Shown in pieces: positions 20,994 through 47,841 of a stretch of DNA of 51,850 nucleotides. The stretch is from an uncultured Candidatus Competibacteraceae bacterium (GTDB taxonomy: Bacteria; Pseudomonadota; Gammaproteobacteria; Competibacterales; Competibacteraceae): assembly GCA_964613675.1 (NCBI GenBank), contig CAZTIH010000001.1:13556-65405 (forward strand), in the 5' to 3' direction. The stretch's first letter is position 1, and each line of letters begins with the position of its first letter. The notes beneath the pieces are model-generated. The model worked only from the letters and a program-made list of their open reading frames with translations. It did no database searches and was not told the DNA's origin. A program made the translations under genes and the position numbers.

Positions 20994-23183
20994 GTGCTCT
21001 CTCTTGTTCCCCTGGTTTTTCTATTTGTTTCTGCAACGGTTTACGGCCTTGATATAGAAGCCCGCCGCGTAGATTTTCAAATGCTTCAAGCCCAACCCAT
21101 AGGCGCAAACATTCAATTAAGACACCTCTCTCTTGATCCCCGTTTTCCCGTCGTCGATCTAGAACTTGAACGATTTTCTGTCTTTGCTGAGGACGCCAAA
21201 ATCACTGTTCACGGCGACCAGGGATCGACTGAAGTCCGTTCTCCTCCCAACATCGCAACCTATCGCGGAAAAATTCGGGGGAACGATGCTTCACATGCTT
21301 TCATCATCACGGACGAAAAAGGCGATTGGCGCGGGATCATTGGGCGTGCCGACGGGGTTTATGTGTTGGAGAAGTCAGCTACCCGTCCCAATGCACAGCC
21401 CTTAGCACGTCGAACCCAATCCCGAGATTTTGAAGGCCGTAACTTCCAATGCGGGTTGGATGAACTCAACGCTTTACAGGGAGTTGATGCTCCTCACGAT
21501 CATGACCACGCCCCTGACTTTAAGATGGGATTTGCAGATCTTTATAAATCTATTCCCGAGTTGGGCGCGGTTACAGGGAATGGGGTCACTTATAAGGTGC
21601 GCGTTGCCATCGAGACCGATCATGAGTTTTTTCAGCTCTTCAATAACACCACCGCAGCGACAAATTACATTGCAAGTCTGATGGGCTATCTCTCGACGAT
21701 CTATCAGAACCAGGTAAATACCGTTCTTGAAGTTGGCGATGTGTCTTTGTGGCAGACAGCGAATGATCCGTGGAATCAAACGGGTTCTACAAACTGTGCA
21801 CTGTATGAATTTGGTCTGTATTGGAACACTAATCGTCAGAATGTGAATCGCACTCTCGTACATTTTCTAAGCGGTAAAGCGCTCGGGGGCGGAGTCGCTT
21901 GGTTAGAAGGGCTATGCGCAAGGCCTCAAATCTTCAACATTTCAAATTGCCCTGGTTTGCCCGCTCAAGGTCTGTTTTATGGCGATTACGGCTTAAGTGC
22001 AGATATAACTGGCGCCTTTAGTCCGAATAATCCGCAAGTCATTTGGGATACTTCGGTCGTAGCCCATGAAATTGGTCACAATTTTAACTCGCCCCATACG
22101 CATTGTTACGCGGGCATAGGGGGCAATTCGCTTCCCGTCGACGGTTGCTATAACCGTGAATCGGATTGCTATTCGGGTTCTGAAAGTTTTCCCGGACCAG
22201 GGAGCTTAACGGGGGGAAGTCCTGGAGGTGGGACAGGCTCGATTATGAGTTACTGCCACTTGCTCGAGGGAGGAAATAGCAATATCACGCTGTCTTTTGG
22301 ACACAACTTCAACTTTGGCGTAGCTCCCGAACGGGTTCCGCAACGAATGCGCGCTTTTGTCGAGCAAACGGCGGCCCAGTATCCTAGCTGCATTGTACCC
22401 GCCACCACGACACCGCCCCCTCCCCCACCTGCCCAAACCGGGGTAGCGTTAGTTGAGATTTATCAAGTCGGTAGCTCGGGAAAAATTTCGGCTATTTCGA
22501 CAAGAGGGATTGTGCAGACGGGTAACGATGTGTTGATTGGCGGGTTTATTCTCGAACAAACAACCACCGTTGCCGTGCGTGCAAAAGGGCCAAGCATGAC
22601 GGCGGTGACGGGGCGTTTGGCTGATCCGACTTTAGAGCTGGTTTATATGGCTTCTGATCAACGGGTTTTTAATGACGATTGGAACAGCGATTCCCAAGCT
22701 AACGCCCTATCTGCAGCAAACCTTGCGCCCACAAGTAATCCGGAGGCAGCGCTATTCAGAACCTTAGCGCCGGGGGGGTACACGGGCATCGTGCGGGGAT
22801 TTCAAAACGCTACCGGGATTGGTCTAGTAGAAGTTTACGAATCTGGAAATAGCGGTAAAATTTCTGCGATCTCTACGCGCGCCTTAGTTGAAACAGGCGA
22901 CCGTGTCATGATTGGCGGCTTTGTGCTTGCGGAAACGACGACGGTTGCCATCCGTGCGGCAGGCCCCTCGTTACCCGATAGTATTGCGAACCGTTTAGCC
23001 GATCCCCAGCTCGAATTAGTGTATGCCGCCACCAGTCAACGGGAAACCAATGATAATTGGCGTACTGATTCTCGTGCAGCGGAACTTGCCAACGCAAATC
23101 AGGCGCCGAGCAACGATCTCGAAGCCGCACTGCTACGCACTTTACCGCCCGGGGCTTATACCGTGATCGTAAGCGGTAAATAA
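20994..23183 (+). CDS. secreted zinc metalloprotease (reprolysin/metzincin-like) with duplicated C-terminal domain
   Basis: 729 aa. It has a signal peptide (MLSLVPLVFLFVSATVYG), an HEIGHNFNSPH zinc motif, a TTTPPPPPPAQT linker, then two ~123-aa homologous domains. Confidence 0.7.
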   Translation: MLSLVPLVFLFVSATVYGLDIEARRVDFQMLQAQPIGANIQLRHLSLDPRFPVVDLELERFSVFAEDAKITVHGDQGSTEVRSPPNIATYRGKIRGNDASHAFIITDEKGDWRGIIGRADGVYVLEKSATRPNAQPLARRTQSRDFEGRNFQCGLDELNALQGVDAPHDHDHAPDFKMGFADLYKSIPELGAVTGNGVTYKVRVAIETDHEFFQLFNNTTAATNYIASLMGYLSTIYQNQVNTVLEVGDVSLWQTANDPWNQTGSTNCALYEFGLYWNTNRQNVNRTLVHFLSGKALGGGVAWLEGLCARPQIFNISNCPGLPAQGLFYGDYGLSADITGAFSPNNPQVIWDTSVVAHEIGHNFNSPHTHCYAGIGGNSLPVDGCYNRESDCYSGSESFPGPGSLTGGSPGGGTGSIMSYCHLLEGGNSNITLSFGHNFNFGVAPERVPQRMRAFVEQTAAQYPSCIVPATTTPPPPPPAQTGVALVEIYQVGSSGKISAISTRGIVQTGNDVLIGGFILEQTTTVAVRAKGPSMTAVTGRLADPTLELVYMASDQRVFNDDWNSDSQANALSAANLAPTSNPEAALFRTLAPGGYTGIVRGFQNATGIGLVEVYESGNSGKISAISTRALVETGDRVMIGGFVLAETTTVAIRAAGPSLPDSIANRLADPQLELVYAATSQRETNDNWRTDSRAAELANANQAPSNDLEAALLRTLPPGAYTVIVSGK
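22440..23180 (+). repeat. intragenic tandem duplication: two ~123-aa domains (22440..22814 and 22815..23180)
   Basis: The two copies align by eye: G.(A/G)LVE(I/V)Y..G.SGKISAISTR..V.TG..V.IGGF.L..TTTVA.RA.GPS......RLADP.LELVY......ND.W..DS.A..L...N.AP....EAAL.RTL.PG.YT.IV.G. Confidence 0.85.
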
Positions 23184-23283: not shown

Positions 23284-24732
23284 ATGAGTAACCGACTGAT
23301 TATTTTAAGCATTATCGGTGCAGTCATCGGCATCCCTCTATTACTACAGGGGCTTTTGTGGTGGCGCGTGAGCAGTGGGGTTGAAAACGCGTTCAATCAA
23401 CTGCGCCAAATGACAGGTAATTTCATCATCATTAGCCACAGTGGCACTTATGCTTGGATTTGGGGAACGGCAGGCATCAATCGACTCATTATCGTACCGG
23501 CCATTCCAGGGTTTTTTCCTAATCTGCAAATCGAGCAATTAGAAGTTAATTTTGATAACCCACTGAATTTGCTGTCGCTTGCGCGTATTGGCCCCGATCA
23601 ACCGCCCCCTCGACAATTAGATATGCGTTGGCGAAATTTGCGGCTCGATAGTACAGAACTTCTGAATTTGGGTTCTGATGTGAGCAGCTTGTTTTTGGAT
23701 TTCGCGCCAGGGTGCGCGGGACATCAGTCTGTAAGTGGCAGTGATCTAATCAATATGGGGTTTGATGCGTTGCAATACGACGGTCGCGTGCGATTCAATC
23801 TGAACTATCGTCGCGGTCTGTTAGAGCTAGCCGTCAATCAAACCTTGCGCAATGCACAACAAATCGACCTGAAAACTGTTCTCTCTACAGACGATTTAGG
23901 CGGCCCCGTTGAAGTGATGGCGAGTAAGGATTGGCGACTTGCCGAATTAAGTTTGAGAATTGACGATGTGGGCTATGGCGAACGTAAGCAGACTTTCTGC
24001 CTCGAACGTGAGGATATGACTGAGGACGCATTTCTCGCAGATCAGCGACAACGTTCAGAACTTGGTTTGCGCAGAGCGGGCCTCAGTCTCAGCACGAATT
24101 TAAAGACTGCGCTTTTAGCTGAAATTCCTGGATTTAATTTACAAATCAATGCGTTACCGACGGCTCCGATTCCACTAAGCAATTTATTGATTAACAGTCG
24201 TAGTGGGTTAGCGAATACGCTCAATGCAGAAGTTTTTGTAAATGAGGAACGTATTCAGAATGCTAACTTCGGCTTTGATCCGATATTAGCGATGCAGGCT
24301 TCCCAACAACTTGAAGCCCAACGGATTGCTGCTGCACAAGCCGCCCGAGAAGCGGCCCGCCGTCCTATGGAAAGGCTTGAACCCGAAGAAACGCCTTCAG
24401 AAGTGGCCGATGAGACTACTCCATCTTCAAGTTCCCCGACTTTTAGACGAGGGCCATCCATAGAAGATATGCAGTTAAGTGCCGAAGAACGTCGTCAACA
24501 AGCAGTTTTGGCGGCGGGATTTCAGGTAGTACCGACTTCTGAACTACATCGATATGCAGGTCGCCAGATTCGTTTGCGATTGGTGAACAATAATCGTTAT
24601 GACGGAGTAATTGAGGAAGTACAGGGCAATACGCTACGTCTTCAGATACGTAGTGGCGGTCAGGCGAACATTCCGATTCCCTTAGCACGGATTAGTGAAG
24701 CGTTAGTCAATCTGCGTGTTGATGCGCAATAA
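23284..24732 (+). CDS. hypothetical membrane-anchored protein
   Basis: 482-aa ORF. It has one N-terminal TM helix (LIILSIIGAVIGIPLLLQGLLWW), an Ala/Gln/Arg-rich and acidic linker, and a C-terminal segment RLRLVNNNRYDGVIEEVQGNTLRLQIR that looks like a small beta-barrel. No family recognised. Confidence 0.5.
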   Translation: MSNRLIILSIIGAVIGIPLLLQGLLWWRVSSGVENAFNQLRQMTGNFIIISHSGTYAWIWGTAGINRLIIVPAIPGFFPNLQIEQLEVNFDNPLNLLSLARIGPDQPPPRQLDMRWRNLRLDSTELLNLGSDVSSLFLDFAPGCAGHQSVSGSDLINMGFDALQYDGRVRFNLNYRRGLLELAVNQTLRNAQQIDLKTVLSTDDLGGPVEVMASKDWRLAELSLRIDDVGYGERKQTFCLEREDMTEDAFLADQRQRSELGLRRAGLSLSTNLKTALLAEIPGFNLQINALPTAPIPLSNLLINSRSGLANTLNAEVFVNEERIQNANFGFDPILAMQASQQLEAQRIAAAQAAREAARRPMERLEPEETPSEVADETTPSSSSPTFRRGPSIEDMQLSAEERRQQAVLAAGFQVVPTSELHRYAGRQIRLRLVNNNRYDGVIEEVQGNTLRLQIRSGGQANIPIPLARISEALVNLRVDAQ

Positions 24733-24789: not shown

Positions 24790-27072
24790 ATGTCAAATGA
24801 AGAACTAAAACAAAGCGCGTTGGAATATCACCGCGCCTATCCACCAGGCAAACTCGCTATTCAAGCGACCAAGCCGCTTGCCACACAACGGGATTTAGCG
24901 CTTGCCTATTCGCCGGGGGTCGCGGCTGCCTGTGAGGCCATTGTTGAAGATCCAAGTCAAGTTTCAGAATTAACTAGTCGCGGCAACTTAGTGGCTGTCA
25001 TCACCAATGGAACTGCCGTCCTTGGGTTAGGCAATATCGGTCCGCTGGCTTCTAAACCGGTCATGGAGGGAAAAGCTGTTCTATTCAAGCAGTTTGCGGG
25101 AATAGATGTGTTCGATTTAGAGGTGAATGAACCCGACCCCGAGAAATTTGTAGAAACCGTTGCCCGTCTGGAACCGAGTTTTGGGGCGATTAATTTGGAA
25201 GATATTCGGGCCCCTGAATGTTTCTACATCGAGGAACAGCTTCGTAGTCGAATGGGAATTCCCGTGTTTCACGATGACCAACATGGCACGGCGATTATCG
25301 TGGGGGCCGCCATTCGGAATGGCTTAAAGATTTTAGGAAAAGATCTGAAGTCAGTGAAACTTGTGACGGCAGGGGCGGGCGCCGCGGCGTTGGCATGCCT
25401 AAATCTGCTCGTTCGAATGGGATTACCTCGGGAAAATATCTTTGTGACGGACTTGGCGGGAGTGGTGTATGAAGGGCGTAATGAGTTGATGGACGAGTGG
25501 AAGGCGCCCTTTGCTCAAACGACGTCGGCCCGAACACTCGCTGAAGTTATTGAAGGCGCTGATATTTTTCTGGGCCTCTCAGCCCCTCGGGTTTTGAATC
25601 CCGATTGGTTGCCCAAAATGGCCGATAAGCCTTTGATTTTGGCGTTGGCAAACCCCACCCCTGAAATTCTTCCCGAACAGGTAAAAGCGATTCGTCCAGA
25701 TGCGATTATTGCGACTGGACGTTCTGATTATCCGAATCAGGTCAACAATGTCTTGTGTTTTCCGTTCATCTTTCGCGGGGCACTAGATGTAGGCGCGACG
25801 ACGATCAATCACGAAATGGAGTTAGCTTGTGTAGATGCGGTGGCGCAGCTCGCCCAAGCGGAGGTAAGTGATGAAGCGACCCGCGCTTATGGCGGAAAGA
25901 CGCTGCGATTTGGTCCAGAATATCTGATACCGCGCCCATTTGATCCCCGACTGATTCTACATATTGCGCCCGCAGTAGCACAGGCAGCGATGGATAGTGG
26001 CGTTGCGACACGTCCTATAGCCAATTTGCAGAGTTATCGAGAAAAACTTTCTCACTTTGTTTATCGGTCGGGTTTAGCGATGAAACCGCTATTCACGCGT
26101 GCGCGTGCCCAACTTAAGCGGTTGATTTATGCGGAAGGCGAAAGCAAACGTGTCTTGCAGGCGGTGCAACAGGTCGTCGACGAAGGGTTAGCGAGACCTA
26201 TTCTGGTAGGACGTCCGTCTGTTATTGAGAAACGGATAGAAGAGCTGGGACTACGTCTCGATCCCAATCGCGATATTGATCTGATCAATATTCTGAAAGA
26301 CCATCGCTATAACGACTATTGTCAAACCTATCATGCGCTTACTGGCAGACGAGGCATTAGTCCAGAAGCCTCACAGAACGCGTTGCGGACCGATGGAACG
26401 GTGGTGAGTGCAGTCGCATTGGTGCGGGGAGAAGCAGATGCGATGTTATGTGGCACGGTGGGGCGATTTGCCCATCATTTGCGAATTATCAGAACAACGA
26501 TAGGCCTACGTAGAGGGGTTAGAGAGCTCTCGACAGTGAGCGCACTTATCTTGCCGTCTGGCCCTCTGTTCATCGCAGACACGCATGTTAATCAGCATCC
26601 TAGTGCGGAAGATATTGCGGAAATGGTTCTGATGGCAGCGGAAGAAGTCCGCGCTTTTGGGATTGTTCCTAAAGTGGCATTGCTATCCCGCTCTAACTTC
26701 GGCACGCACGATGATTTGCCTTCAGCGTTCCTAATGCGCACAGCTTTGGGCCTGATTCACGGCCGTGACCCTGATTTAGAAGTTGATGGTGAGATGCACG
26801 CAGATGCAGCGTTGTCATCGGAAATTCGGGCGCGTGCTTATCCCGAATCGCGTTTACAGGGGATGGCGAATCTTCTGGTGATGCCGAATCTCGAAGCGGG
26901 CAACATCGCGTTTAATCTCTTAAAGCAGTTGGGCGGAGGGTACTACATTGGCCCGATTCTGCTGGGAGCACGTCAACCCGCCCACGTAGTGAGCCAATCC
27001 ATCACGGTTCGGGGTTTAGTGAACATGAGTGCGCTCGCTGTTGCTCAGCTAAATGTGAATATCAACGACTAG
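24790..27072 (+). CDS. maeB: NADP-dependent malic enzyme (malic enzyme + phosphotransacetylase-like domain)
   Basis: 760 aa. The N-terminal malic-enzyme domain ([25 protein letters not shown]) is followed by a PTA-like C-terminal half. Confidence 0.9.
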
Positions 27073-27094
27073 TTTTTAACAAAAAATAGACTGA

Positions 27095-27121
27095 AAGCCG
27101 ATACTAAATCGGCTTTTTTTG
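27095..27121 (+). terminator. rho-independent terminator of maeB
   Basis: AAGCCGAT-actaa-ATCGGCTT 8-bp stem followed by a T7 run. Confidence 0.7.
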
Positions 27122-27405
27122 TGCCCTGAAATCATCGTTTTCAATTAAAAAACTGGGTGGTACGAAATAACCACATCATTTTTTTTATTTTATGACAGTA
27201 GCATGTACGATTATTGCATAAAAAAATTTTTTAATTCACATTTTATTTTGAAATTCAAGAATGCTTGTAAAACAAATATTTCAAATAAAAAGTTGTCCAT
27301 AATAAAATAGTAACGGAATTGTTATTTTTTAATAAGCTATTGATTTAAAACAAATATTTAAGTGTGTAATTTTTAATTTAACAAATGTATTAAACAAACA
27401 ACATA
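27121..27405. other. extremely AT-rich tract (candidate DNA-unwinding region)
   Basis: About 285 bp that is AT-dominated by eye. It contains an exact 14-nt direct repeat, TAAAACAAATATTT, at 27268..27281 and 27346..27359. It has no credible ORF and lies between two gene 3' ends. Confidence 0.5.
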
Positions 27406-27947
27406 TGTTGGCTTTGCGCCCGCGTTACAAAATAAAAGTGCCTGCACTGGTTATTTTTCGATAGGGGGTATTTTTTCCGAATAACGAGAATTTTATTGCA
27501 TAAAGTTTAGAAATACCCCTTTGAGGTTGGCTTTGCGCCCACCAAGGTTGGCTCGACGCCCACCAGTGTTGGCTTTGCGCCCACCGCAAAAGTTTGGGGA
27601 AAAACTTAACTTATTGATTTTACGTGTTTTGAAAAAGTCAAGGTTGGCTTTGCGCCCACCCTAAAATGGTCATATTTCTTTACAAAGCTTGCTAAGTTAT
27701 TGATTTATTTTTCACATGTTGCAGTAAATACCCCCTCATGTAAAGCATTTGTAACGCGATAAAAACCCCCCTTAGTTTGAAAAAAATGCCTAAATCAAAA
27801 TGATACAAGGGGGGCAAATTAGTGGCCGCTAAGCCAACCCTATTATTAAATGACATAAAATTTCGTGAAATCTCGTCTATATTTGGTGGGCGCAAAGCCA
27901 ACCTTTCAAAAAAAATTTCTTAAAAAACTATATAAATCAATGAATTA
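27334..27947. promoter_or_regulatory. four IHF-consensus (WATCAANNNNTTR) sites sharing a (T/C)TATTGATTT core
   Basis: The copies are 27334..27346 aagctattgattt, 27608..27620 aacttattgattt, 27694..27706 aagttattgattt (these three match IHF on the minus strand: AATCAA-N4-TTA) and 27934..27947 AAATCAATGAATTA (plus strand). Confidence 0.4.
27406..27660 (+). repeat. iteron-like 19-bp repeats, forward set (5 copies)
   Basis: Consensus GGTTGGCTTTGCGCCCACC. Copies start at 27406 (16/19), 27525 (19/19), 27546 (16/19, centre TCGAC), 27567 (18/19) and 27642 (19/19). The three middle copies are exactly 21 bp apart. Confidence 0.85.
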
Positions 27948-27970
27948 TAGCGGTGTGCGCAAAGCCAACC
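27821..27970 (-). repeat. iteron-like 19-bp repeats, inverted set (3 copies)
   Basis: The plus strand reads GGTGGGCGCAAAGCCAACC. Copies start at 27821 (16/19), 27885 (19/19) and 27952 (18/19). The hexamer GTTGGC is invariant in all 8 copies. Confidence 0.8.
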
Positions 27971-28026
27971 TTGACAGTAAAAATTTTTACTGAAACATCT
28001 TGACTAAATTTTTTTTTTAATATACC

Positions 28027-28060
28027 AACTAAAATAGTCGGTTTTATATTTATAACCGAC
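28027..28060 (-). terminator. possible terminator of mnmE
   Basis: GTCGGTT-N10-AACCGAC inverted repeat (28037..28060). On the minus strand it is followed by TATTTTAGTT. It lies about 45 nt past the mnmE stop. Confidence 0.4.
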
Positions 28061-28102
28061 CTAAAAACCCTAAAATGTAATTTTTTAATAAAATCAATTT
28101 TT

Positions 28103-29473
28103 TCACTTTCCAATGCAAAATGTCGAAAAGATTCGCCCTAACAGCTCGTCACTCGTTAGTTTTCCGGTAATTTCGCCTAATGCGTCGTGGGAAAGACGTA
28201 ATTCTTCCGCCAATAATTCAGGACAATTCACTTGCCCATTTTCAATGGCTGCTAGCAAATGAATTTCAGCCTGATTTAGCGCATTCAAATGACGTTGTCG
28301 GGCGATAAATGCACCTTCGTGGGGTTCGTAATGGAGTACCTGCTTAATTTGGGTGTACAACAAATCCATGCCATTCCCCGTTTTGGCAGAAAGCCAAATC
28401 ACGACTCGCTCACCGTCCGTTTCACATCTAGGCGACTGCTCGATTAAATCGACCTTGTTTTGGACGATTAACACGGGAATTGGCCTTGTAAGTTCCGCAA
28501 GTAACGATGCCTCAAACTCCCCTATACCCGTTCGGGCATCACAAACCACGATGAGTAAGTCCGCCCGCTCGATCTCTTGGTAGGCGCGTCGCATCCCTTC
28601 TTGTTCGATCTCATCTTCACTGTGTCGTAGCCCCGCGGTATCGCACAAATGGACAGGCATCCCCTCTACTTGGATGTCCGCTCGCAAAATATCTCGTGTC
28701 GTACCTGGGATCGCGCTAACAATAGCCGTGTCTTGTCCAGTTAATTCATTGATTAAACTGGATTTTCCTACATTTGGCTGACCGATGATCGCTAGGTTAA
28801 ATCCATCGCGTAGCAACTGCCCCTGCCGTGTTTGCTGTTTTAACGCCACAAATTCGTTGGCAAGTTCTCGTAATTTCTCGTGAATCGCTGCCTCATTTAA
28901 GAAGTCGATTTCTTCTTCAGCAAAATCCAAAGCTGCTTCAACATACATCCTTAGATAAATAATTTTTTCAGATAAATTATTGATTTTTTTAGAAAACATA
29001 CCTTGTAATGAATTAGTTGCTGCATGTGCAGCCTGTTCCGTGCGACTGGCAATCAAATCTGCAATGGCTTCTGCTTGCGTTAAATCTAGCTTCCCATTAA
29101 GGAACGCTCGTTCGGAAAATTCGCCGGGTCTCGCTAAACGTGCGCCTAATTCGATTGCCCGATGAAGTAATAGATTGAGTGCAATAGGACTGCCATGGAT
29201 TTGTAATTCTAAAACCGCTTCTCCGGTAAATGAATTAGGGGCGGGAAAATACAAAACTAATCCAGTGTCAATCAGCTGCTTTTGCCGATCGTAAAAGCGT
29301 TTATAAGTCGCCATTCTGGGCGTCGGAATAACACCAATTAACTGCGTCGCGATCTGTTCTACTGTCGGCCCAGATAGCCGCAAAATGCCGACTCCACCTC
29401 GTCCTGGTGGAGTCGCAATTGCAATAATAGTGTCAGTTTTAGAAGAAAGAGAATCAATATGAATTGAGGTCAC
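28103..29473 (-). CDS. mnmE: tRNA modification GTPase MnmE
   Basis: 456 aa. It has the IATPPGRGGVGILRLSG N-terminus, the G-domain GQPNVGKSSL / DTAGLR, and the C-terminal FCIGK. Confidence 0.95.
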   Translation of the reverse strand: MTSIHIDSLSSKTDTIIAIATPPGRGGVGILRLSGPTVEQIATQLIGVIPTPRMATYKRFYDRQKQLIDTGLVLYFPAPNSFTGEAVLELQIHGSPIALNLLLHRAIELGARLARPGEFSERAFLNGKLDLTQAEAIADLIASRTEQAAHAATNSLQGMFSKKINNLSEKIIYLRMYVEAALDFAEEEIDFLNEAAIHEKLRELANEFVALKQQTRQGQLLRDGFNLAIIGQPNVGKSSLINELTGQDTAIVSAIPGTTRDILRADIQVEGMPVHLCDTAGLRHSEDEIEQEGMRRAYQEIERADLLIVVCDARTGIGEFEASLLAELTRPIPVLIVQNKVDLIEQSPRCETDGERVVIWLSAKTGNGMDLLYTQIKQVLHYEPHEGAFIARQRHLNALNQAEIHLLAAIENGQVNCPELLAEELRLSHDALGEITGKLTSDELLGRIFSTFCIGK

Positions 29474-33283: not shown

Positions 33284-33383
33284 TGTGGATAAGTGCCTGT
33301 AATCCTGTGGATAAGTCTGTGGATAACTCCTGTGGATAAGTCTGTGGATAAGTACAGGCAAAAGGGCAAATTTCTGTGGATAA
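33284..33383 (-). promoter_or_regulatory. oriC DnaA-box array A: six perfect boxes, plus strand reads TGTGGATAA
   Basis: There are exact 9-mers at 33284, 33306, 33318, 33331, 33343 and 33375 (start coordinates). Confidence 0.9.
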
Positions 33384-33412
33384 CTCCAAAAGTTACGATT
33401 TGCCCAGAAAAG

Positions 33413-33543
33413 TTATCCACAACGTTATCCACAGAAATTCCCGACTTATCCACAGAAAAGGCCAATTCTATCCACAGGCATTTTTCGACCTAACTTATTG
33501 TTTTAACTGACAATGACATCGACTTATCCACAGGTTATCCACA
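33413..33543 (+). promoter_or_regulatory. oriC DnaA-box array B: six boxes, plus strand reads TTATCCACA
   Basis: There are exact 9-mers at 33413, 33425, 33446, 33524 and 33535, plus CTATCCACA at 33468. Confidence 0.9.
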
Positions 33544-38517: not shown

Positions 38518-38787
38518 ATGACCATTCGCATTCCTGAGGGTGGGCCGCCACCCCGTCCCATCTTCACCGCTTCAGCGGCGCGGACCAGCACAATTACGGC
38601 ACCCGCTACCGTCCAGCTCAGTAGTGATGTCCGCCATTTGCAACAAGTTCAGCAACAACTTGTGCAGGAGGAGAGTGTGAATAACCGTCGCATAGCAGAA
38701 CTTCAACGAGCAATAGATAATGGTACCTATCGGGTTGATAGTCGCCAACTTGCTGAAAAACTTGCAAACTTTGAGAACAATCTTTAG
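38518..38787 (+). CDS. flgM: anti-sigma-28 factor FlgM-like protein
   Basis: 89 aa. It has a disordered N-terminal half. The C-terminal RIAELQRAIDNGTYRVDSRQLAEKL matches the FlgM signature (K/R.. L.. AI..G.Y.VD...IA.KL). Confidence 0.7.
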   Translation: MTIRIPEGGPPPRPIFTASAARTSTITAPATVQLSSDVRHLQQVQQQLVQEESVNNRRIAELQRAIDNGTYRVDSRQLAEKLANFENNL

Positions 38788-39767
38788 CGCGTGCCAGCGA
38801 GTTTGGGGACGGTAAGTTCCACGAGCAGCTCGTCGGTCTTATCCATTTTCCAGCAATTCAGAACACCTACAGTTTGCAACTCATCAAGTGCCCCTTTGAG
38901 CGTTCTGCGCCATTCTTTGGGCTGTGCCGATGAACCACAGAGTTGTTGTAGTGCGAGAACCGAAACGCAGTGAGTGCCATCGCTTTGGCTTGCAAAATAG
39001 CCATGTAACCAACGGGAAACATCTTTTTTAAGTTGTCGTCGTGTTTCCCAATCGATGGGGATACTTCCGTCTGCAAACAACTTTATTAACTTGGGATTTA
39101 ATGTTAAGGCATAACGCTCTAGTGCGCGATCGCGGTAAAAATCCAGTAAATTTCCAATGTAATCAAAGCGATCTGTCGAAATGTGCAGGGCACAGGCGAC
39201 CATTCGCGTTAGAGATTCGTTAAGTCGTTGATGATGATCTTTTCCCTTTGGACTTCGGCCTATCGCTTGCAAAAAACCGTAAGCACTGAACTCCGCTTTT
39301 ACGCCCAATCCACCATTTTGTTTTGCAATATCAATGGCTTGTAGCCAAATATCGAGATCAAATTGATCAAGTTGTGTCCCTGTAAAAGTAAGCGTAAACC
39401 CCGGCAAAGCGGCAATCGGATGCTGTTGAAATTGGCGTCGTTGCCCACGGGGCATGATTCCAAACAGTGCTGAACGTAACAGACATGCAGGCGCTAATCG
39501 CTGTACACCTGGCGTCCAAAGTTGTGGAAAGGCCAATTCTGGAGAGGTGGGAGGGGGTTCTAAACCCGTTAATAAATCACCCCGCAGAGGCTCTGATGGG
39601 GGCCGCGATTTAGGGAGTTGAGGGGCGTCAAAAACAAGCGGTATCTGGGGCGGATGAGAAATCTGTTGACGACGCAGTTGGTCGCGCCGTCGCATCTGCT
39701 CCAAAAGTTCTGCTGGAGTCGTAATCGACCTTTTAGGGGGAGGTGGCATGAGAACGCTTGTGCTCAA
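38784..39767 (-). CDS. TrfA-family plasmid-type replication initiator protein
   Basis: 327 aa. It is collinear with TrfA blocks as recalled from RK2: LRSALF, FTGTQLDQFDLDIWLQA, FSAYGFLQAIGRS, SLTRM, DFYRD, LTLNPKLIKLF, IDWETRRQL, WLHGYF, LQQLCGS, LKGALDELQTVG. The track start is a TTG at 39767, and the alternative ATG at 39749 would give MPPPPKRS... Confidence 0.8.
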   Translation of the reverse strand: MSTSVLMPPPPKRSITTPAELLEQMRRRDQLRRQQISHPPQIPLVFDAPQLPKSRPPSEPLRGDLLTGLEPPPTSPELAFPQLWTPGVQRLAPACLLRSALFGIMPRGQRRQFQQHPIAALPGFTLTFTGTQLDQFDLDIWLQAIDIAKQNGGLGVKAEFSAYGFLQAIGRSPKGKDHHQRLNESLTRMVACALHISTDRFDYIGNLLDFYRDRALERYALTLNPKLIKLFADGSIPIDWETRRQLKKDVSRWLHGYFASQSDGTHCVSVLALQQLCGSSAQPKEWRRTLKGALDELQTVGVLNCWKMDKTDELLVELTVPKLAGTR

Positions 39768-39774
39768 AAGAGGT

Positions 39775-42513
39775 TTAACGATTCTGTAGATCGTGGCGTT
39801 GTAGAAAAGTCTGTTGACCTGGGATTTCGACGGTTCCGACCGTAGCGAGACAACTTTCGATCTCCGTGGGGCTCACTGCCCGCACAAAAACCCGTTTACC
39901 CTTAATAATACCCGTAAATTCAAGCTGGATAGCCGCTAATTCTCGATCTCCTTGAGTGAGTTCACCCGTCAACGCTTGTGGAGAAGCTGTGTAGAAAAGA
40001 TTAAAGATACCATCCCTTGGAACCCCTAACTCTTCCCATTTCCCATATTCTCCCCCTTGCCGAATCATGGGTTCAAACTTTCGCAATTTCAGATATCCGA
40101 CGAAGAATTGGAAAGGTGCTTCACATTCAGTCTTGGAATAATTGACGATTTTAATCGGTTCGCCAGGGCAAAGTCGCAGTAACCCTAATGCAACTCCCGT
40201 TTTAGCAGTGGGTTTGTAGAAATTTTCTTTGTCAATCTGAAGCGGTAAATGCACCTCAAATCCCATAGGGAAATCATCTAAAAGCTGTTCTAGAAACGCG
40301 TTAATGCGTTCTTCTAAGGTTTCTCGTCGCAAATCTTCAGTGTTTTTAACCACGGGCTTGATGGGTGAGGATTTCTTGCCGAAAATTTCTGTAATGAAGG
40401 GGGAACGACTGCCGTTTCCTGCTAACAGAACATGAACTTTTCGCGGACGATAAGGGGTCGCTAAAAAAGCCGTCTTCAGGCTCGTGTAAAAATTTCGTAC
40501 CCCCATCTCTAGTCGGGTTTCTAAGTAGTGACGGATTCGGGCGCGAGGGAGAATCAGTTCACAATTTTTCCGCAACCCCTCTCGACTTAAGAGTTCTATA
40601 GCGATCGGGCCTTCATCAGAGAGTTCTGCACCTTCCCAAAATTTTCTTAGCCGACTCACTAACATCACCATATTCGTGATCGCTGCTTGGGTTTTTTCTA
40701 GGAAAAGTTCACTCCCCGGAAAATCTTCGGCATCGATTGGCTTTTGAAAAGAAATCTGATGACGACGACAAATTTCGAGATTTCGAGGTTCCTTAAAAAC
40801 CAGATAAGCCATGTTTTCCAAGATATTTTCGCCCCCTAAAAATTTATCCCCTGAGGCTCCAAAATGTTCGATAACCGCTTCATAGCCTTCCTCTGCCTCT
40901 TCTTCGTCTGCTAAACGATAAATTCCAAAATCAAAATCTGTTGTCCCTCCCCCAAAATCAAAGACTCCATAGGCCTGCCCTTCTTCTGTAGGGGTGATTT
41001 TTAAAGTATCTAAAGCAGCGATAGCATAAGCAGCGGGTTCCGATGCGCGCTCTTCCACGGAGAATCGCTTGAGAACTTCGGTATTGGTTGTTATGGATTG
41101 GGGCAAGCTGCGTTGCAATCCGCGATGGAAAGAAGCCAAAATTTTTTCTTTCACGGTTTGCGGATAGGCAACGGGGAAAGTCATGTAATAACGGGTAAAA
41201 ATCCCCCTTTGACGCCAATTGATCACCATTCCCAAGTAGTAAGCATAGACTTCTACAGGATCGAATAGATCGTTCTGAGAGACGATTATTGGTGTACCTT
41301 TTGACGGTGGCCTCAAAGTTAAAGGGTCAATGCGATATTCGTAACCTTTTGATTGATCTGTAAAACTTACCTGCAGATCTTGCTCGCTTCTCAGCGCCCA
41401 TTGCTTTAACCGAAGCAGAACACTGCCAACAATACGAACATCTCCTTGATTATCCCGCAGATGATTTAACGCTTCGTGAGAGGCTTTGACATCTGTCCAT
41501 TGCGTTAACGGACGATAGGCCATCGACTGCCAAGGGAGCAAAAATCTTTGAAAATCAATAAATTCTAAAACCGTTGGATTTTCATAATGTTTTGCTTCTG
41601 CCGGCGCCCAATAATCGTGAACGCCGATACGTAGCAGTCGATCTTGGCCATTTTCCCGATAAGCAACCACGGTGCTACTGGTACCGAAGTCAATTGTGAC
41701 AAACCCCTTTTGCACATCGAGATTCGGATCGCGGCCTCTTAACAACTCATCTATTTCTAAAGAAATTCGCTCTTTTTCCGAAAATCCATCGCCATGAAGC
41801 TCCCATAAACCTTTTGCAGGATCAGTGATTTGCGAAGGTTCGAGCTCGGGTAACTTCACGCTTTGCGAATCAATTTTTTTAAACGCCTGCTTCAAAAACG
41901 AAGCGGTCAAGCACTTCTGATTGCCACTTAAGAAAGACTTAGCCCGTTGGTAATCACCCCGTAGCTGTTGCATCAGATCCGCTGTTAGATGCTTTCCAGT
42001 ATGCGATCTCAATGACCATCCCCGTTGCAGACATTCGTCAATGACGGCTTTCGCATTGTTTTGTGTTGGAAAAGGGCGGGTTACAAGCACACATCCTGGC
42101 CATTCTTTATGGCCTTTCAGATCGTCTAAGTTGAGTCCCCCCGCCGTAGTGAGAAAACATTCTTGTACATTTCTGATGCGGTAGTTAGGGCCTTCTCTTA
42201 GAGGAAATTGATTCTGAACGACATTTACTAAGTAGCTCGCTTCGGGAAGTTGCCAACTATCTAAGCCACTGATTTTTATCTGAGAAATCGGGGATTTACT
42301 TTGCTGAAGCGAACAGGCGGTATTGGCAAAGTCTTTCTGCCATAGCCAAAAGCAGTCCCGATCCAAAATCATTGATTCTTCCTTCCCGTCAAACACCCAC
42401 CACCAGCGGTTGGGCGCATTATTAAAGGTTTCCAATACCATCCTTAGAATGTCATCAGCCCGATGTTTAACAATCCCCATCAGAAGTGATCGAGAGGAGG
42501 TGATTTTTGCCAT
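39775..42513 (-). CDS. divergent Hsp70/actin-fold ATPase with ~270-aa N-terminal and ~170-aa C-terminal unassigned regions
   Basis: 912 aa. It has Hsp70 NBD motifs in the canonical order: VTIDFGTSSTVVAY (phosphate-1), SEPAAYAIAA, GVFDFGGGTTDFDFGI (phosphate-2), LGGENILENM, VHVLLAGNGSRSPFI (adenosine). No canonical DnaK substrate-binding domain or EEVD tail is recognisable. Confidence 0.75.
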   Translation of the reverse strand: MAKITSSRSLLMGIVKHRADDILRMVLETFNNAPNRWWWVFDGKEESMILDRDCFWLWQKDFANTACSLQQSKSPISQIKISGLDSWQLPEASYLVNVVQNQFPLREGPNYRIRNVQECFLTTAGGLNLDDLKGHKEWPGCVLVTRPFPTQNNAKAVIDECLQRGWSLRSHTGKHLTADLMQQLRGDYQRAKSFLSGNQKCLTASFLKQAFKKIDSQSVKLPELEPSQITDPAKGLWELHGDGFSEKERISLEIDELLRGRDPNLDVQKGFVTIDFGTSSTVVAYRENGQDRLLRIGVHDYWAPAEAKHYENPTVLEFIDFQRFLLPWQSMAYRPLTQWTDVKASHEALNHLRDNQGDVRIVGSVLLRLKQWALRSEQDLQVSFTDQSKGYEYRIDPLTLRPPSKGTPIIVSQNDLFDPVEVYAYYLGMVINWRQRGIFTRYYMTFPVAYPQTVKEKILASFHRGLQRSLPQSITTNTEVLKRFSVEERASEPAAYAIAALDTLKITPTEEGQAYGVFDFGGGTTDFDFGIYRLADEEEAEEGYEAVIEHFGASGDKFLGGENILENMAYLVFKEPRNLEICRRHQISFQKPIDAEDFPGSELFLEKTQAAITNMVMLVSRLRKFWEGAELSDEGPIAIELLSREGLRKNCELILPRARIRHYLETRLEMGVRNFYTSLKTAFLATPYRPRKVHVLLAGNGSRSPFITEIFGKKSSPIKPVVKNTEDLRRETLEERINAFLEQLLDDFPMGFEVHLPLQIDKENFYKPTAKTGVALGLLRLCPGEPIKIVNYSKTECEAPFQFFVGYLKLRKFEPMIRQGGEYGKWEELGVPRDGIFNLFYTASPQALTGELTQGDRELAAIQLEFTGIIKGKRVFVRAVSPTEIESCLATVGTVEIPGQQTFLQRHDLQNR

Positions 42514-42533: not shown

Positions 42534-43199
42534 TTAGCGGATTTTAACAAGCGGTTTCTGCACAACTTCTCCATTCGCATCTTTCAGACCAGATAGCAAC
42601 ATCATTTCAACAGTTTCGCCCGCATCCTCAGAATAACGACCTGTCTGGTGTATTTCGTGGTCGAAAGGAGTATTCGGAAAAACAATAATTTCTTCTGCTT
42701 GTAAGTCTTGCAGTGAATAATTATGAAGCTTAAGACAGCCCTTTAAGACCTGATTTTGTTCTACAGAAATGGGTTTTTCATGTTCTTTACAGTGATTTGC
42801 CATCTCGCGCCATAACATCGCAATAGACTTCCACTGGGTCGCACGCGATAGAAATCGTTGTAGTAACTCACCTTCGTCAGAGACTTCTGTATCGCCTAAG
42901 AGAATTCGTTTCAACAAATTATCTGTTCGCGTAGTCGCTAACCATTGCAGCGGATTTCTGAGTTGTACTCTCAGGGGGTCTGTCAAGCTGCTTTTAGCCG
43001 CAATAGGGGGCACTTCTGTCGGTAGAATCTTTGATTTTGACTGACTTTCAGAAATACTTGCCGCCCCCTCAAAATCCTGAGGATTCCGAACTGCATCGGC
43101 GATTAGTTTGGCAAATGCCGTGCGAAATTCCTTGTCTTCCTGAATTAAATTAAGCAACTGTTGTTTGTCGATTTGTATGGGGAGTAGCATCTGAAACAT
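42534..43199 (-). CDS. GrpE-like putative nucleotide-exchange factor (tentative)
   Basis: 221 aa. It has a good RBS (AGGAAA 8 nt upstream). The C-terminus FPNTPFDHEIHQTGRYSEDAGETVEMMLLSGLKDANGEVVQKPLVKI resembles the GrpE beta-domain pattern G..FDP..H.A......G.V..V...GY.....V.RPA.V.V. The N-terminal part is not obviously GrpE-like. Confidence 0.4.
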   Translation of the reverse strand: MFQMLLPIQIDKQQLLNLIQEDKEFRTAFAKLIADAVRNPQDFEGAASISESQSKSKILPTEVPPIAAKSSLTDPLRVQLRNPLQWLATTRTDNLLKRILLGDTEVSDEGELLQRFLSRATQWKSIAMLWREMANHCKEHEKPISVEQNQVLKGCLKLHNYSLQDLQAEEIIVFPNTPFDHEIHQTGRYSEDAGETVEMMLLSGLKDANGEVVQKPLVKIR

Positions 43200-43359: not shown

Positions 43360-46300
43360 TTATTCGCGCAATCGACGCAAATCGAGCGTACGGGGGTAAT
43401 CAGCGTTACGCTCTTTTGGAGGAATGGGATACGGTCCATCGGGGACTCCGTGGGGATAGAAAGAACGAAGCTTCAGATACTCAGGAGGGGGAGGAACCGT
43501 CCCAGGTGTATGATTCATAGGGAAAAAGCGCTCCCCTCGCCGCGATTCTGCCGTATTCGCATTGACGGGAAATTGCTCATGGGCACGCCCCCCCGGATGC
43601 GCGACATGATAAGTGCATCCCGAAATCGCTCGACCTGTCCACTGATCGACAATATCAAACACCAATGGCACATCGACGGGGATCGTTGGGTGTAATGCCG
43701 AGGGAGGTTGCCAGGCGCGAAAACGCACTCCCGCAACAAATTCCCCTTTAACCCCAGTGGAGTGGAGCGGAACACGTCGTCCATTACAGGCCAAAACATG
43801 GCGATTTTCCGTCATGTTGGTGATTTTTACTTCCAAACGCTCAACCGAAGAATCGACATAACGTGCAGTACCCGTTCCCGTTGCTTCCTCGCCCAAGACA
43901 TGCCACGGTTCAATCGCCAGTCGCAACGTCAGCTCGATTTCATCGACTTGCAGACGTCCAGCTACGGGGAAGCGGAATTCAAAGAAAGGATCGAGCCATT
44001 CCATCAGAAAGGGATAGCCGGCATCTTTCAGATCATTCAGAACCGATTGCATATCCCGACGAACAAAATGGGGCAACATGAATTGGTCGTGTAATGAAGT
44101 ACCCCAGCGAACCAGTTTATGTCTGTAAGGTTTCTTCCAGAACATCGCGACCAGTGAACGGATGAGTAATATTTGAACAAGGCTCATTTGTGGATGAGGG
44201 GGCATCTCAAAACCCCGCATTTCCAGGACGCCTAAACGACCCGCAGGGCCATCAGGGGAATAGAGCTTGTCTATACAGAACTCAGCACGGTGGGTATTCC
44301 CCGTTAAATCAACTAACAGATTTCTGAAAAGTCGGTCGACAATCCACAAAGGGACATCGCCTTTGGGCAGTCTTTGCAACGCAATCTCGAGTTCGTAAAG
44401 CAATTCGTCCCGAGCTTCATCGACTCGTGGCGCTTGGCTGGTTGGCCCAAGAAAAAGTCCAGAAAATAAATAAGACAATGCGGGATGGTGCTGCCAATAG
44501 GTTAATAAACTCGCTAACAGATCGGGGCGTCGCAATAGCGGTGAATCTGCTGGCGTTTTTCCCCCCAAGGTGACGTGATTCCCGCCTCCCGTACCCGTAT
44601 GCCGCCCGTCTAGCATGAACTTTTCGGTTCCTAAACGGGATAATCGCGCCTGTTCGTACAAAACTGAAGTGTTCTGAACAAGCTCTGACCAGCTCTTCGC
44701 AGGGTGAATATTGACCTCGATGACGCCGGGGTCTGGCGTAATATGGATGCGTTCCAGACGTTCATCACGGGGCGGATCGTAGCCTTCCAGATAAATAGGC
44801 ATCTGAAGCTCACTCGCGGTGAGTTCAATGGCTGCCACGAGTTCTGCATAATCATCGGCATTATTCAATGGCGGTAAGAAAATATGTAGATTCCCCTTCC
44901 GAATTTCAAAGCAGAGCGCGGTTTTAATGACATCCGACCATTGAGTTTTGCTTGAATCAGTCTCTTTAATGGGCTTCTGAAGCGTTCGCGTTTGTAGCTC
45001 GACAGATTCTGTAAAGCTGCTCAACCGCTGTCCCACCACCGCGTGAGCGTCTGCAAGGGCAGGTTTTTCGGCGAATGGATCGATCTCGGTTGCTGTTTCG
45101 TGTTGAACAGCTTCTTGAGTCATCCAGGGAAGGGCATTGAGGGGTAATCTGAAGCCCATCGGAGAATCGCCAGGAATCAGATACAAACGCTCTCTGCGCA
45201 ACGGCCAAGAGCTTGTCTGCCATGTCGCACCCCAAGGATGGCGACGCAGAGGTAATACAAAACCGACAGGGGTACTTACGCCTTGGCTTACAACGCGAAT
45301 AAACCGTCTCCGTTCCTCATCATCATCCAAATTTAGGGTGGCAAAATCGAGGTTGACGGGTAAGTCGGCCTCCGTTTTCAGAATTGCTAATGGATCTTCA
45401 AAAGCGCTGATAATGGCTTTGGCATCTAATCCCAGTGCAAGAGTTAATCGTTCTGCAAATCGTTGTGCATCCTGACGAGAAAATTTTTGAGGTTTTGTCG
45501 GTACTGCTAACCATTTTGGGTTATGCCACAATGGTTTACCATCAGTTCGCCAAAATAAACCGAACGCCCAACGCGGTAAAGGCTCGCCCGGATACCATTT
45601 TCCTTGTCCGTAATGAACAGTGCCTTGTTTACCAAAAATCTCGCGCAGACGGCCTAATAAGTCGCTTGCAAGCTGTAATTTGTGTTCGCCCAACGCTGCT
45701 GTATTCCATTGAGCACTGTCCATGTCATCTATTGAGACAAAAGTGGGTTCTCCGCCCATCGTAAGCCGAACATCCATCGCCTCTAAATCTTGATCGACCT
45801 TCTGGCCCAATGCGTTCGCCATCGACCACTGCAATTCCGTGTAGGGCTTGGTGACCCGAGGATCTTCGTGGATACGCATAACTCGGTTGTGGAAATAGAA
45901 CTCGGTTTCGCACTCATCGACGGCACCCGTAATGGCAGCAGCACTGCTGGGATCAGGTGTGCAGGCCAGGGGAATATGTCCCTCTCCCGCAAACAAACCC
46001 GAGGTTGGATCAAGCCCCACCCAACCTGCCCCCGGCAAGTAAACTTCAGTCCAAGCATGGAGGTCGGTAAAATCGGCTTCTGGCCCTGAAGGACCATCAA
46101 GCGCCTTGACATCAGCAGTGAGTTGTACGAGATACCCCGACACAAAACGAGATGCAAAGCCAAGATGGCGAAGTATTTGCGCTAATAACCAAGCCGAGTC
46201 TCGACAAGACCCCGTGCCTTTTTTGAGCGTTTCCTCACTGCTCTGTACGCCAGGCTCCATGCGGATGGTGTAACCCACATCTTTCGCAATCTGTGCGTTC

Positions 46301-46743
46301 AGATCGACGAGAAAATCAATATTTGCACGCTTACGACGGTCAACTTTCTGCAACCACTTCATCAGAAGTGGCCCGCGCTCCTTCACGATTACATAGGGCG
46401 CGAGTTCTAGCTTGTTCTGATCATCGTACTCAAAGGGAAAATTGAAAGCTGAATCTTCTATAAAAAAATCAAAGGGGTTGATGGTCACCATATCGGCGAC
46501 GAGATCGACACGCACGCTGAGTTCTGTTGCGCGTTCATTAAACACTAAACGGGCTAAATAGTTACCAAAAGCATCCTGTTGCCAGTTAATAAAATGTTCT
46601 TTTGGCTCAACATTCAAAGAATAAGAGACAATCGGTGTTCGACAATGTGGCGCGGGTCTCAGACGTACGATGTGAGGGGATAATGTGACTCTTCGGTCGT
46701 AGCGATAGATGGTGGTATGGTCAATGGCAATGCGAATGGTCAT
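43360..46743 (-). CDS. large transglutaminase-family protein (N-terminal Bact_transglu_N + transglutaminase core, C-terminal DUF2126-type region)
   Basis: 1127 aa. It has the N-terminus [24 protein letters not shown] and a Cys-His-Asp core ([39 protein letters not shown]). Confidence 0.85.
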   Translation of the reverse strand: [1127 protein letters not shown]

Positions 46744-46767
46744 GAAATAAGGTTCCTAATCAAGGGG

Positions 46768-47784: not shown

Positions 47785-47841
47785 TTTTTAAGTCTCACAG
47801 AAAGAATGATTTTTGCGAAAAAGCGTGAATGAGGAAGTCAT

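Follow-up and report, generated by a model that had tools for sequence, protein, structure and literature searches.

Results

The repeat array between maeB and mnmE

We analyzed a 51,850-bp window of chromosomal DNA (about 48% GC) from an uncultured gammaproteobacterium, contig CAZTIH010000001.1, and describe here a gene-free array of 19-bp repeats in that window that resembles the iterons of plasmids replicated by TrfA-type initiators. The host molecule is a chromosome that carries dnaA, dnaN, gyrB and rpmH; its MnmE shares at most 57% identity with any public protein. The array lies in a non-coding gap of 1030 bp (27073-28102) between the convergent genes maeB and mnmE. When the 19-mer GGTTGGCTTTGCGCCCACC was searched for with up to three mismatches, exactly eight copies were found in the window, all of them inside the gap. 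Five forward copies (27406-27660) are followed by three inverted ones (27821-27970), and the two sets converge on a 160-bp centre (27661-27820). Further copies were absent from the window at this threshold, allowing up to five mismatches added none, and 100 shuffles yielded no match to the 19-mer. The genes and repeats are as follows.

24790-27072, + strand: maeB, NADP malic enzyme (NF009501, E = 0)
27406-27424, + strand: copy 1, TGTTGGCTTTGCGCCCGCG, three mismatches
27525-27543, + strand: copy 2, perfect; opens the tandem trio
27546-27564, + strand: copy 3, arms kept, the 5-bp centre alone changed to TCGAC
27567-27585, + strand: copy 4, one mismatch; closes the tandem trio
27642-27660, + strand: copy 5, perfect; 75 bp after copy 4
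27821-27839, - strand: copy 6, inverted, three mismatches
27885-27903, - strand: copy 7, inverted, perfect
27952-27970, - strand: copy 8, inverted, one mismatch
28103-29473, - strand: mnmE

Three of the eight copies are perfect, two carry a single change and three carry three mismatches. All 11 substitutions fall outside positions 2-8 (GTTGGCT), which are identical in every copy; by our own calculation, the chance of that particular 7-bp block staying unchanged is (12/19)^11 = 0.006. Copies 2 to 4 form a head-to-tail trio with 2-bp spacers and starts exactly 21 bp apart. Across the whole array the start spacings are 119, 21, 21 and 75 bp in the forward set and 64 and 67 bp in the inverted set, which places copy 5 (at 75 bp) and copies 6 and 7 (at 64 bp) roughly in helical phase. 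The flanks of the copies are not conserved, so the true unit is about 19-21 bp long. It is a near-palindrome of the form 7-5-7, with arms GGTTGGC and GGTGGGC that amount to an inverted pair of the half-site GGTKGGC. Folded as a hairpin, the 19-mer reaches -2.9 and -3.9 kcal/mol (z = -0.75 and -1.6), which is no better than shuffles, and the substitutions in copies 6 and 8 break stem pairs without compensation.

An earlier note on this DNA had reported a non-coding gap of about 1 kb at this place, eight copies of the repeat with these positions and strands, three of them perfect, an invariant GTTGGC, a trio at exact 21-bp spacing, and a near-palindromic unit whose copy at 27546 exchanges its centre for TCGAC while keeping its arms. 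Our searches reproduced each of these observations and lengthened the invariant block by one base, to GTTGGCT. The note had also described the left part of the gap as extremely AT-rich with an exact 14-mer direct repeat, and this too was confirmed (below).

AT-rich tracts and candidate IHF sites

The gap holds several other features, listed here in order.

27094-27116, + strand: intrinsic terminator hairpin of maeB, AAAGCCGAT...ATCGGCTTT and then a T run; bounds the element on the left
27125-27405: left AT-rich tract, candidate DNA-unwinding element, 15-20% GC (27180-27400)
27333-27346, + strand: IHF-consensus site and 14-mer TAAGCTATTGATTT
27461-27524: inverted pair GGGGGTATTT / AAATACCCC, stem-loop-like (z = -3.3), just before the tandem trio
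27607-27620, + strand: IHF-consensus site and 14-mer TAACTTATTGATTT, between copies 4 and 5
27661-27820: central region, with one IHF-like site, AAATACCCCC at 27726 and a CCCCCC...GGGGGG inverted pair
27693-27706, + strand: IHF-consensus site and 14-mer TAAGTTATTGATTT, in the central region
27934-27947, - strand: IHF-consensus site AATCAATGAATTA, between copies 7 and 8
27976-28101: right AT-rich tract, about 20% GC, including the mnmE terminator-like hairpin
28033-28062 (approximate): mnmE terminator-like hairpin, read from the sequence; right boundary of the element

The detection step assigned the maeB hairpin to the opposite strand; it is on the + strand that a T run comes after it. In the left tract the exact 14-mer TAAAACAAATATTT occurs twice, at 27268-27281 and 27346-27359. 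The least stable 60-bp duplex of the entire 51.8-kb window (27322-27381, dG -61) adjoins copy 1, against a mean dG of -84 (standard deviation 5.4) for 60-bp duplexes across the window, and six of the ten least stable such duplexes fall in the gap.

The exact IHF consensus WATCAANNNNTTR occurs four times in the gap and 19 times in the other 50.8 kb (about 0.4 per kb), and three of the four gap sites share the 14-mer TAAsyTATTGATTT. A wider family of 14-mers related to TAACTTATTGATTT by two or fewer mismatches has 11 members in the window, where 0.44 would be expected; four lie in the gap and two inside the probable chromosomal origin (oriC), and the members include those at 15498, 27333, 27607, 27693, 27934, 28973, 33228 and 33491. 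This family, containing as it does the IHF consensus, may represent the site of this organism's IHF or of another architectural protein. A third repeat family, AAATACCCC, is found at 27465 (-), 27511 (+) and 27726 (+), so that three of its four occurrences in the window are in the gap. The hairpin formed by the C6/G6 inverted pair (27766-27814) has z = -2.3 relative to shuffles.

A TrfA-family initiator gene in the same window

Two genes to the right of gyrB bear on the identity of the array, and between them and the array lies the probable chromosomal origin.

33284-33543: probable chromosomal oriC in the dnaA-dnaN spacer, 12 DnaA boxes; not part of the element
38518-38787, + strand: FlgM-like small gene (PF04316, E = 9e-16), tail-to-tail with trfA, 4-nt overlap
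38784-39767, - strand: TrfA-family initiator gene (Pfam PF07042); called gene 38784-39749, 321 aa

The TrfA-like protein matches PF07042 with E = 9e-14 and 51.6 bits (cut-off 22) over profile positions 44-272 of 282. Its plasmid homologues comprise 445 records at 33-42% identity, mostly annotated trfA. An AlphaFold2 model has a confident core at residues ~90-315 (predicted local distance difference test score ~80-95), preceded by a disordered, proline-rich N-terminus; the N-terminal extension amounts to some 85 residues. When the model was compared with known structures using Foldseek, the matches were domains 2-3 of RctB (the best), RepE54 with iteron DNA and TrfA with double-stranded DNA (E = 1e-3 to 8e-9); Rep with single-stranded DNA of the unwinding element and the RepE dimer-operator structure 2z9o were also among them. 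Taken together, the Pfam and fold matches identify a bona fide iteron-type initiator with two winged-helix domains (WH1-WH2).

The gene is carried unchanged by a second assembly of the same population, the metagenome-assembled genome GCA_036734045.1 (99.97-100% identical). A more distant genome, GCA_036846405.1 (59-62% GC), encodes a TrfA homologue 76% identical to ours and a FlgM-like protein with 72% amino acid identity, again tail-to-tail with a 4-nt overlap. Between the two trfA genes the nonsynonymous divergence (dN) is 0.19-0.21 and its ratio to synonymous divergence (dN/dS) about 0.08, so the flgM-trfA pair is maintained by purifying selection. For the same two genomes MnmE is only 57% identical (dN 0.37), and the orthologue of orf912, the gene next to trfA, is 51% identical. 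Either the pair is conserved to an unusual degree, or its exchange postdates the divergence of its hosts; its higher identity relative to MnmE and orf912 suggests a small mobile or exchanged two-gene cassette.

The genes upstream of trfA were considered as further plasmid genes and rejected. The product of orf912 (39775-42513) is a widespread gammaproteobacterial chromosomal protein, and its orthologue in GCA_036846405.1 does not lie beside trfA; the protein has no Pfam or PHROG match and about 1000 homologues at 42-51% identity across the Gammaproteobacteria, some of which UniRef names 'molecular chaperone DnaK', and the family is uncharacterized. Upstream of it, orf221 (42534-43199) has no matches at all.

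Comparison with the iterons of TrfA plasmids

We read the iterons directly from the origins of nine plasmids that encode a homologous TrfA. In all but one, trfA is adjoined by 5-10 tandem units; the units are 20-22 bp long and built on GGTGGGYGC-TATCCCC or on a related CCTACC form. Written in one common orientation, they are:

Aeromonas plasmid: GGTGGG(C/T)GCTATCCCCTG
Azotobacter plasmid: GGTGGGCGCTATCCCGTG
Arsenophonus plasmid: GGTGGGTGATATGCCGTAG
Janthinobacterium plasmid: GGCGTGGGTCGGATGCCGTG
Methylocaldum plasmid: GCGTAGGTGCTATACCCCTA
Pantoea plasmid: GCCTACCCGCTATCCCGTG (CCTACC type)
Nitrosococcus plasmid: GCCTACCTCGAACTACGTG (CCTACC type)

The units of a Plautia symbiont plasmid and of a second Arsenophonus plasmid are also of the CCTACC type. 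On the GGTGGG side, all of the plasmids read have AT-rich DNA carrying short repeats of the GATTA type, in many cases together with a DnaA box, and the initiator gene is found within 0-600 bp of the iterons.

The core GGTGGGCGC/GCGCCCACC is common to the 19-mer and the plasmid iterons. The reverse complement of the window unit, GGTGGGCGCAAAGCCAACC, shares its first nine bases (GGTGGGCGC) with the iterons of the Aeromonas and Azotobacter plasmids, and a hand alignment with these gave agreement at 12 of 18 positions. The second half of the window unit is unlike the plasmid TATCCCC half; it repeats the first half in inverted form. A shared 9-mer arose by chance in 49 of 5000 composition-preserving shuffles and is present in 0.9% of real window 19-mers. 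The sequence link between the 19-mer and the TrfA-plasmid iterons, at p ~0.01, is suggestive but falls short of proof.

In the plasmid with the closest TrfA, that of Methylocaldum, the iteron occurs upstream of trfA as three direct repeats and an inverted one, 62-135 bp apart. Dispersed iterons in two orientations therefore exist in this TrfA subfamily. The outer half of the plasmid iteron, set against the GCTATCCC half, reads GGTGGGY in some TrfA plasmids and GCCTACC, in the opposite orientation, in others; half-site orientation may thus be flexible within the subfamily, a point relevant to the near-palindromic window unit. In the Pantoea, Plautia symbiont and Arsenophonus plasmids we also observed that the iteron block runs directly into 4-6 perfect hexamers, (ATTGCC)n or (TAGGTG)n, at 1900-1929, 1848-1873 and 1837-1871 of the plasmid extracts, which looks like a conserved trait of oriVs of this type. 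When the gap was compared with plasmids by BLASTN, no match was found, and the repeat block alone gave only matches with E = 1, located in an AT-rich spacer.

The chromosomal origin and the placement of the array

The dnaA-dnaN spacer contains 11 perfect and one near-perfect DnaA box (TTATCCACA), of which the first six lie on the - strand and the last six on the + strand, a mirror layout with AT-rich DNA on both sides. It is the probable DnaA-dependent oriC, 5.7 kb from the array. The rpmH-dnaA spacer is short and without DnaA boxes. We rejected the gap itself as chromosomal oriC, as it has no DnaA boxes, compared with 12 at 33.28-33.54 kb. The earlier note had proposed GC skew as a guide to the replication peak; the analysis was run over the 52-kb window, where skew follows gene strand and has no power to separate the array at 27.7 kb from oriC at 33.4 kb.

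The midpoints of the array (27.69 kb; 27688) and of trfA (39.28 kb; 39276) are mirror-symmetric about the centre of the DnaA-box cluster (33.41 kb; 33414), at distances of 5.73 and 5.86 kb, a symmetry that we noticed after the fact. Origin-symmetric inversions are common in bacteria. A single origin-centred inversion could have split a once contiguous trfA-oriV unit, or the symmetry could be a coincidence; the conserved flgM-trfA junction implies that the breakpoint of any such inversion was not at the 3' end of trfA.

Occurrence of the repeat elsewhere

The exact 19-mer has four single matches in 596 Gb of genome contigs, all in unrelated taxa, which by our estimate is about chance level for a 19-mer. 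There were four further single matches in metagenome contigs, and a 17-mer had 13 single matches in viral contigs. No match in these genome, metagenome and viral collections had a second copy within four mismatches beside it. The 19-mer is also absent from about 13.5 kb of GCA_036734045.1 contigs, which duplicate window sequence and end inside mnmE and dnaA, so that the gap lies outside them. Exact-protein look-ups for mnmE, maeB, ruvB and hemN found no match in other assemblies. The earlier note had asked whether the 19-mer is dispersed; within the 51,850-bp window, the sister contigs and about 19 kb of the related lineage, it is confined to this one locus.

Two sites in GCA_036846405.1 were considered and not used. 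One, GGTGGCTTTGCCGCCCAC, resembles the 19-mer with one substitution and one insertion and falls within a cmr/RAMP gene at a distance of 1.6 kb from that genome's flgM-trfA pair (3533-3550 of that locus); its shuffle p is ~0.005, but many tests were made and the DNA is coding. The other is a weak 19-mer-like site about 50 bp upstream of the related trfA. With four errors allowed, 67% of shuffles also match, and neither site is therefore counted as evidence.

Gene neighbourhood

To the left of the gap the gene order is parC (-), an M12B-like protease open reading frame (ORF), a 482-aa ORF and maeB (all +). To the right are mnmE, yidC, rnpA and rpmH (-), then dnaA, dnaN, recF and gyrB (+), and after gyrB the FlgM-like gene (+) and trfA, orf912 and orf221 (all -); rnpA and rpmH were assigned from conserved gene order and sequence. 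The protease ORF (20994-23183, 729 aa) has a reprolysin/M12B-type metallopeptidase domain, which is uncommon in bacteria, and the 482-aa ORF (23284-24732), just upstream of maeB, has no family match. A conserved cluster at 43360-49290 (-) encodes a DUF2126/transglutaminase-like protein (1127 aa), an alpha-E domain protein and a circularly permuted ATP-grasp protein.

A hidden small gene in the gap was considered and rejected: of 14 ORFs of 20-69 aa none is credible, and several read through the repeats. An Rfam scan of the window at gathering threshold found a single tRNA, at 10.6 kb, and no match in the gap, where an E-value scan returned only sub-threshold noise around the maeB terminator.

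Discussion

We suggest that the maeB-mnmE gap holds a plasmid-derived iteron module cognate to TrfA, that is, the cis half of a TrfA-type replicon that now resides in the chromosome. We lean towards this explanation, by a little over even chances, and are slightly more inclined still to accept that the 19-mers belong to the TrfA-like protein. The earlier note had inferred a plasmid-type origin or a handcuffing or incompatibility locus embedded in the chromosome, and had named an AT-rich unwinding element and IHF sites among the parts of iteron plasmid origins. This reading is supported in part: the repeats are iteron-like, a TrfA gene is present in the same window, the repeat and the plasmid iterons share a core, and the array adjoins readily melted DNA, including the least stable duplex of the window, and four predicted IHF sites.

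Several observations weigh on the other side. The gap contains no DnaA box (TTATCCACA) with one or no mismatch, as the earlier note had also seen, and matches with two mismatches occur there at background density; the probable oriC lies elsewhere. Only three of the eight copies are in tandem, at a phasing of 21 bp rather than 22 bp, and the near-palindromic unit would be more like a dimer operator than a classical asymmetric iteron. The trfA gene is not adjacent but 11 kb away, across oriC and eight housekeeping genes, and no 19-mer was found near it in the window. The sequence link to the plasmid iterons is no better than p ~0.01, and it weakens when whole plasmid arrays with their spacers are taken as the target, where four of the window's 25 shared 11-mers are in the gap; moreover, the invariant block GTTGGCT belongs to the other arm than the one shared with the plasmid iterons. 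Finally, the related genome offers no parallel. No 19-mer array was seen in about 19 kb from the GCA_036846405.1 lineage, mnmE is followed there by an unrelated convergent gene 8 bp downstream with no gap between them, and the flgM-trfA pair sits in a different neighbourhood, beside type III cmr genes and not gyrB.

We think it most probable that the array is a locus for initiator binding, pairing or titration, or else a latent origin, and that this chromosome is normally replicated not from it but from the DnaA-box cluster between dnaA and dnaN; we doubt that the gap fires as an origin at all. The uneven spacing and the two orientations of the copies would suit a handcuffing or incompatibility locus no less well than an active origin. 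P1 incA, F incC and the extra 3+1 iterons of RK2 are irregularly spaced, occur in both orientations and lie outside the minimal origin, and the window array is irregular and two-oriented in the same way. The inverted half-iteron structure of its unit also resembles the inverted repeats bound by Rep dimers, as in the repE operator (PDB 2z9o). Such handcuffing arrays and operators differ from ours in lying beside a plasmid rep gene or origin, whereas the window array is chromosomal and is not near trfA or any obviously controllable promoter.

How the TrfA-type module might work can be sketched by analogy with plasmid systems. The winged-helix initiator encoded at 38.8-39.8 kb would bind the 19-bp repeats. 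Rep monomers are the replication-active form and normally read asymmetric iterons, and Rep dimers read inverted repeats (PMC4980987). Each window unit is an inverted GGTKGGC pair, one arm of which is the GGTGGGCGC core, and thus an inverted pair of a half-site that each plasmid iteron uses once; binding by TrfA-like dimers in operator mode, like that of Rep dimers at their operators, is therefore possible, and monomers could bind as well. The 21-bp phasing of the trio would place bound protein on one face of the helix, and IHF-type bends could bring the dispersed and inverted sites together in a compact nucleoprotein complex. The flanking tracts of 15-20% GC, the DNA most prone to melt, would lie beside that complex. 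At RK2 oriV, DnaA boxes adjoin the unwinding element (PMC4980987). However, the long form of RK2 TrfA itself loads the Pseudomonas helicase (PMC4980987), and given this precedent and the N-terminal extension of about 85 residues in the window protein, the missing DnaA boxes would not be fatal in principle.

An extended form of this proposal is that two initiator systems operate on one chromosome in this deep-branching gammaproteobacterium, with DnaA acting at the box cluster and a domesticated TrfA-type initiator on the 19-bp array. The array would then be a second or backup origin free of DnaA boxes, or a TrfA-controlled regulator of oriC firing, and the mirror symmetry about oriC would be functional and not an inversion scar. 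We regard this combination as improbable.

Among the alternatives to a TrfA-cognate module, the best placed, though unlikely, is that the array is bound by an unrelated dimeric protein (a transcription factor, a nucleoid-associated or centromere-type protein, or a fork or transcription barrier) and that the TrfA gene is coincidental. A 7-5-7 near-palindrome whose arms are kept while its centre varies is typical of dimeric helix-turn-helix or ribbon-helix-helix sites, the two opposed sets of repeats converge on a centre, and the TrfA-iteron link is only about p = 0.01. Chromosomal centromeres are origin-proximal clusters of palindromic sites. However, no candidate gene for the binding protein is adjacent, the neighbours being maeB and mnmE; the gap has no parS-like site; and without DnaA boxes it is not datA- or DARS-like. 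An unrelated protein would also leave it unexplained that two rare things, a chromosomal TrfA gene and an iteron-like array, occur within 11 kb of each other, symmetrically about oriC.

Selfish elements offer a second alternative, in which palindromes like repetitive extragenic palindromes (REPs), their bacterial interspersed mosaic elements (BIMEs) or miniature inverted-repeat transposable elements (MITEs) have piled up in a permissive convergent intergenic region. BIMEs of E. coli combine inverted REPs with an IHF site (BIME-1, or RIP). Like these elements, the window array lies between convergent genes, is made of an imperfect palindrome whose asymmetric mismatch is conserved, uses both orientations and has IHF-consensus sites between its copies. 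What sets it apart is its confinement: REPs are dispersed, whereas the 19-mer is absent from the remaining 50.8 kb of the window with its more than 30 intergenic regions, from the roughly 13.5 kb of sister contigs that duplicate the window and from about 19 kb of the related lineage, and public genome, metagenome and viral collections gave no multi-copy match. In addition, the hairpin is weak and no better than shuffles, with stem-breaking changes in copies 6 and 8, and five forward copies followed by three reverse, including a head-to-tail trio with 2-bp spacers, do not alternate strictly as BIMEs do. We consider this explanation decidedly improbable.

Least probable of the three is an inert relic, functionless today, left decaying after a plasmid or mobile element inserted long ago: the irregular layout, the three copies with three mismatches, the missing DnaA boxes and the lack of conservation of the locus in GCA_036846405.1 would suit decay, but five of the eight copies have at most one change (three of them none), the contiguous seven-base block has escaped all 11 substitutions (0.006), and the presumptive partner gene, trfA, is under purifying selection. 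A CRISPR array is rejected on its 19-bp unit (at least 23 bp would be expected), irregular spacings and two orientations, and a ParB/parS centromere because the gap has no match to the 16-bp palindrome TGTTNCACGTGAAACA at up to three mismatches.

Returning to the TrfA-cognate module, its closest counterparts are plasmid origins. RK2/IncP oriV and the TrfA plasmids examined here have, like the window, initiator-type sites of about 20 bp in helical phase that adjoin AT-rich, meltable DNA with short repeats (PMC4980987 for the RK2 layout), and a TrfA-family WH1-WH2 initiator encoded in the same genome. The Aeromonas and Azotobacter plasmids share the GGTGGGCGC core with the window unit, and the Methylocaldum plasmid has dispersed direct and inverted copies. 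The differences are that the plasmids have 22-bp phasing and 5-10 tandem copies, whereas the window has 21-bp phasing and three; that their iterons have a TATCCCC second half where the window unit is a near-palindrome; that they have DnaA boxes, which the gap lacks; and that their initiator gene lies 0-600 bp away on a plasmid and not 11 kb away, across oriC, on a chromosome.

Plasmid-type initiators that act on chromosomes are known from Vibrio cholerae, in which RctB recognizes iterons and 39-mers on Chr2 and the crtS site on Chr1 (PMC8565311, PMC4846446). As there, a plasmid-type winged-helix initiator would have its sites on a main chromosome that possesses DnaA and oriC, although in the window the binding is predicted. 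RctB drives a separate replicon, whereas the window gene and sites lie within 6 kb of oriC on one molecule; the RctB sites have no sequence similarity to the 19-mer, and a second replicon is not in evidence here. Plasmid replicons embedded in chromosomes that have their own oriC are known from integrative suppression by F or R1 (PMC4287441) and from naturally fused V. cholerae chromosomes with ori1 and ori2 (PMC5603330). The window likewise has parts of a plasmid-type replicon in a chromosome that keeps its own oriC. Those integrated origins are whole, contiguous, recent and far from oriC, whereas here there is only trfA (with flgM) and a gene-free array, the parts are split symmetrically around oriC, and trfA has apparently been maintained for a long time.

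There are precedents, then, both for plasmid replicons integrated into chromosomes and for initiators of plasmid type that act on a chromosome (PMC4287441, PMC5603330, PMC4846446, PMC8565311). What is unusual here is a gene-free array split from its putative initiator gene across oriC, a near-palindromic unit, the absence of DnaA boxes and the apparent conservation of the initiator with a FlgM-like partner. A bacterial chromosome is generally assumed to have one origin, dependent on DnaA; the known exceptions are laboratory integrative suppression and rare fused Vibrio chromosomes. If our proposal is correct, this locus would show, in nature, a plasmid-type initiator that is kept by purifying selection and has a probable binding array right beside oriC. 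The near-palindromic variant of a TrfA-type site could be used in studies of monomer versus dimer recognition. Even if the array is only an integration scar, it would still mark plasmid-to-chromosome traffic in an uncultured lineage, and if it is more than that, it would provide a tractable example of a chromosome capturing, splitting and possibly reusing plasmid replication modules.

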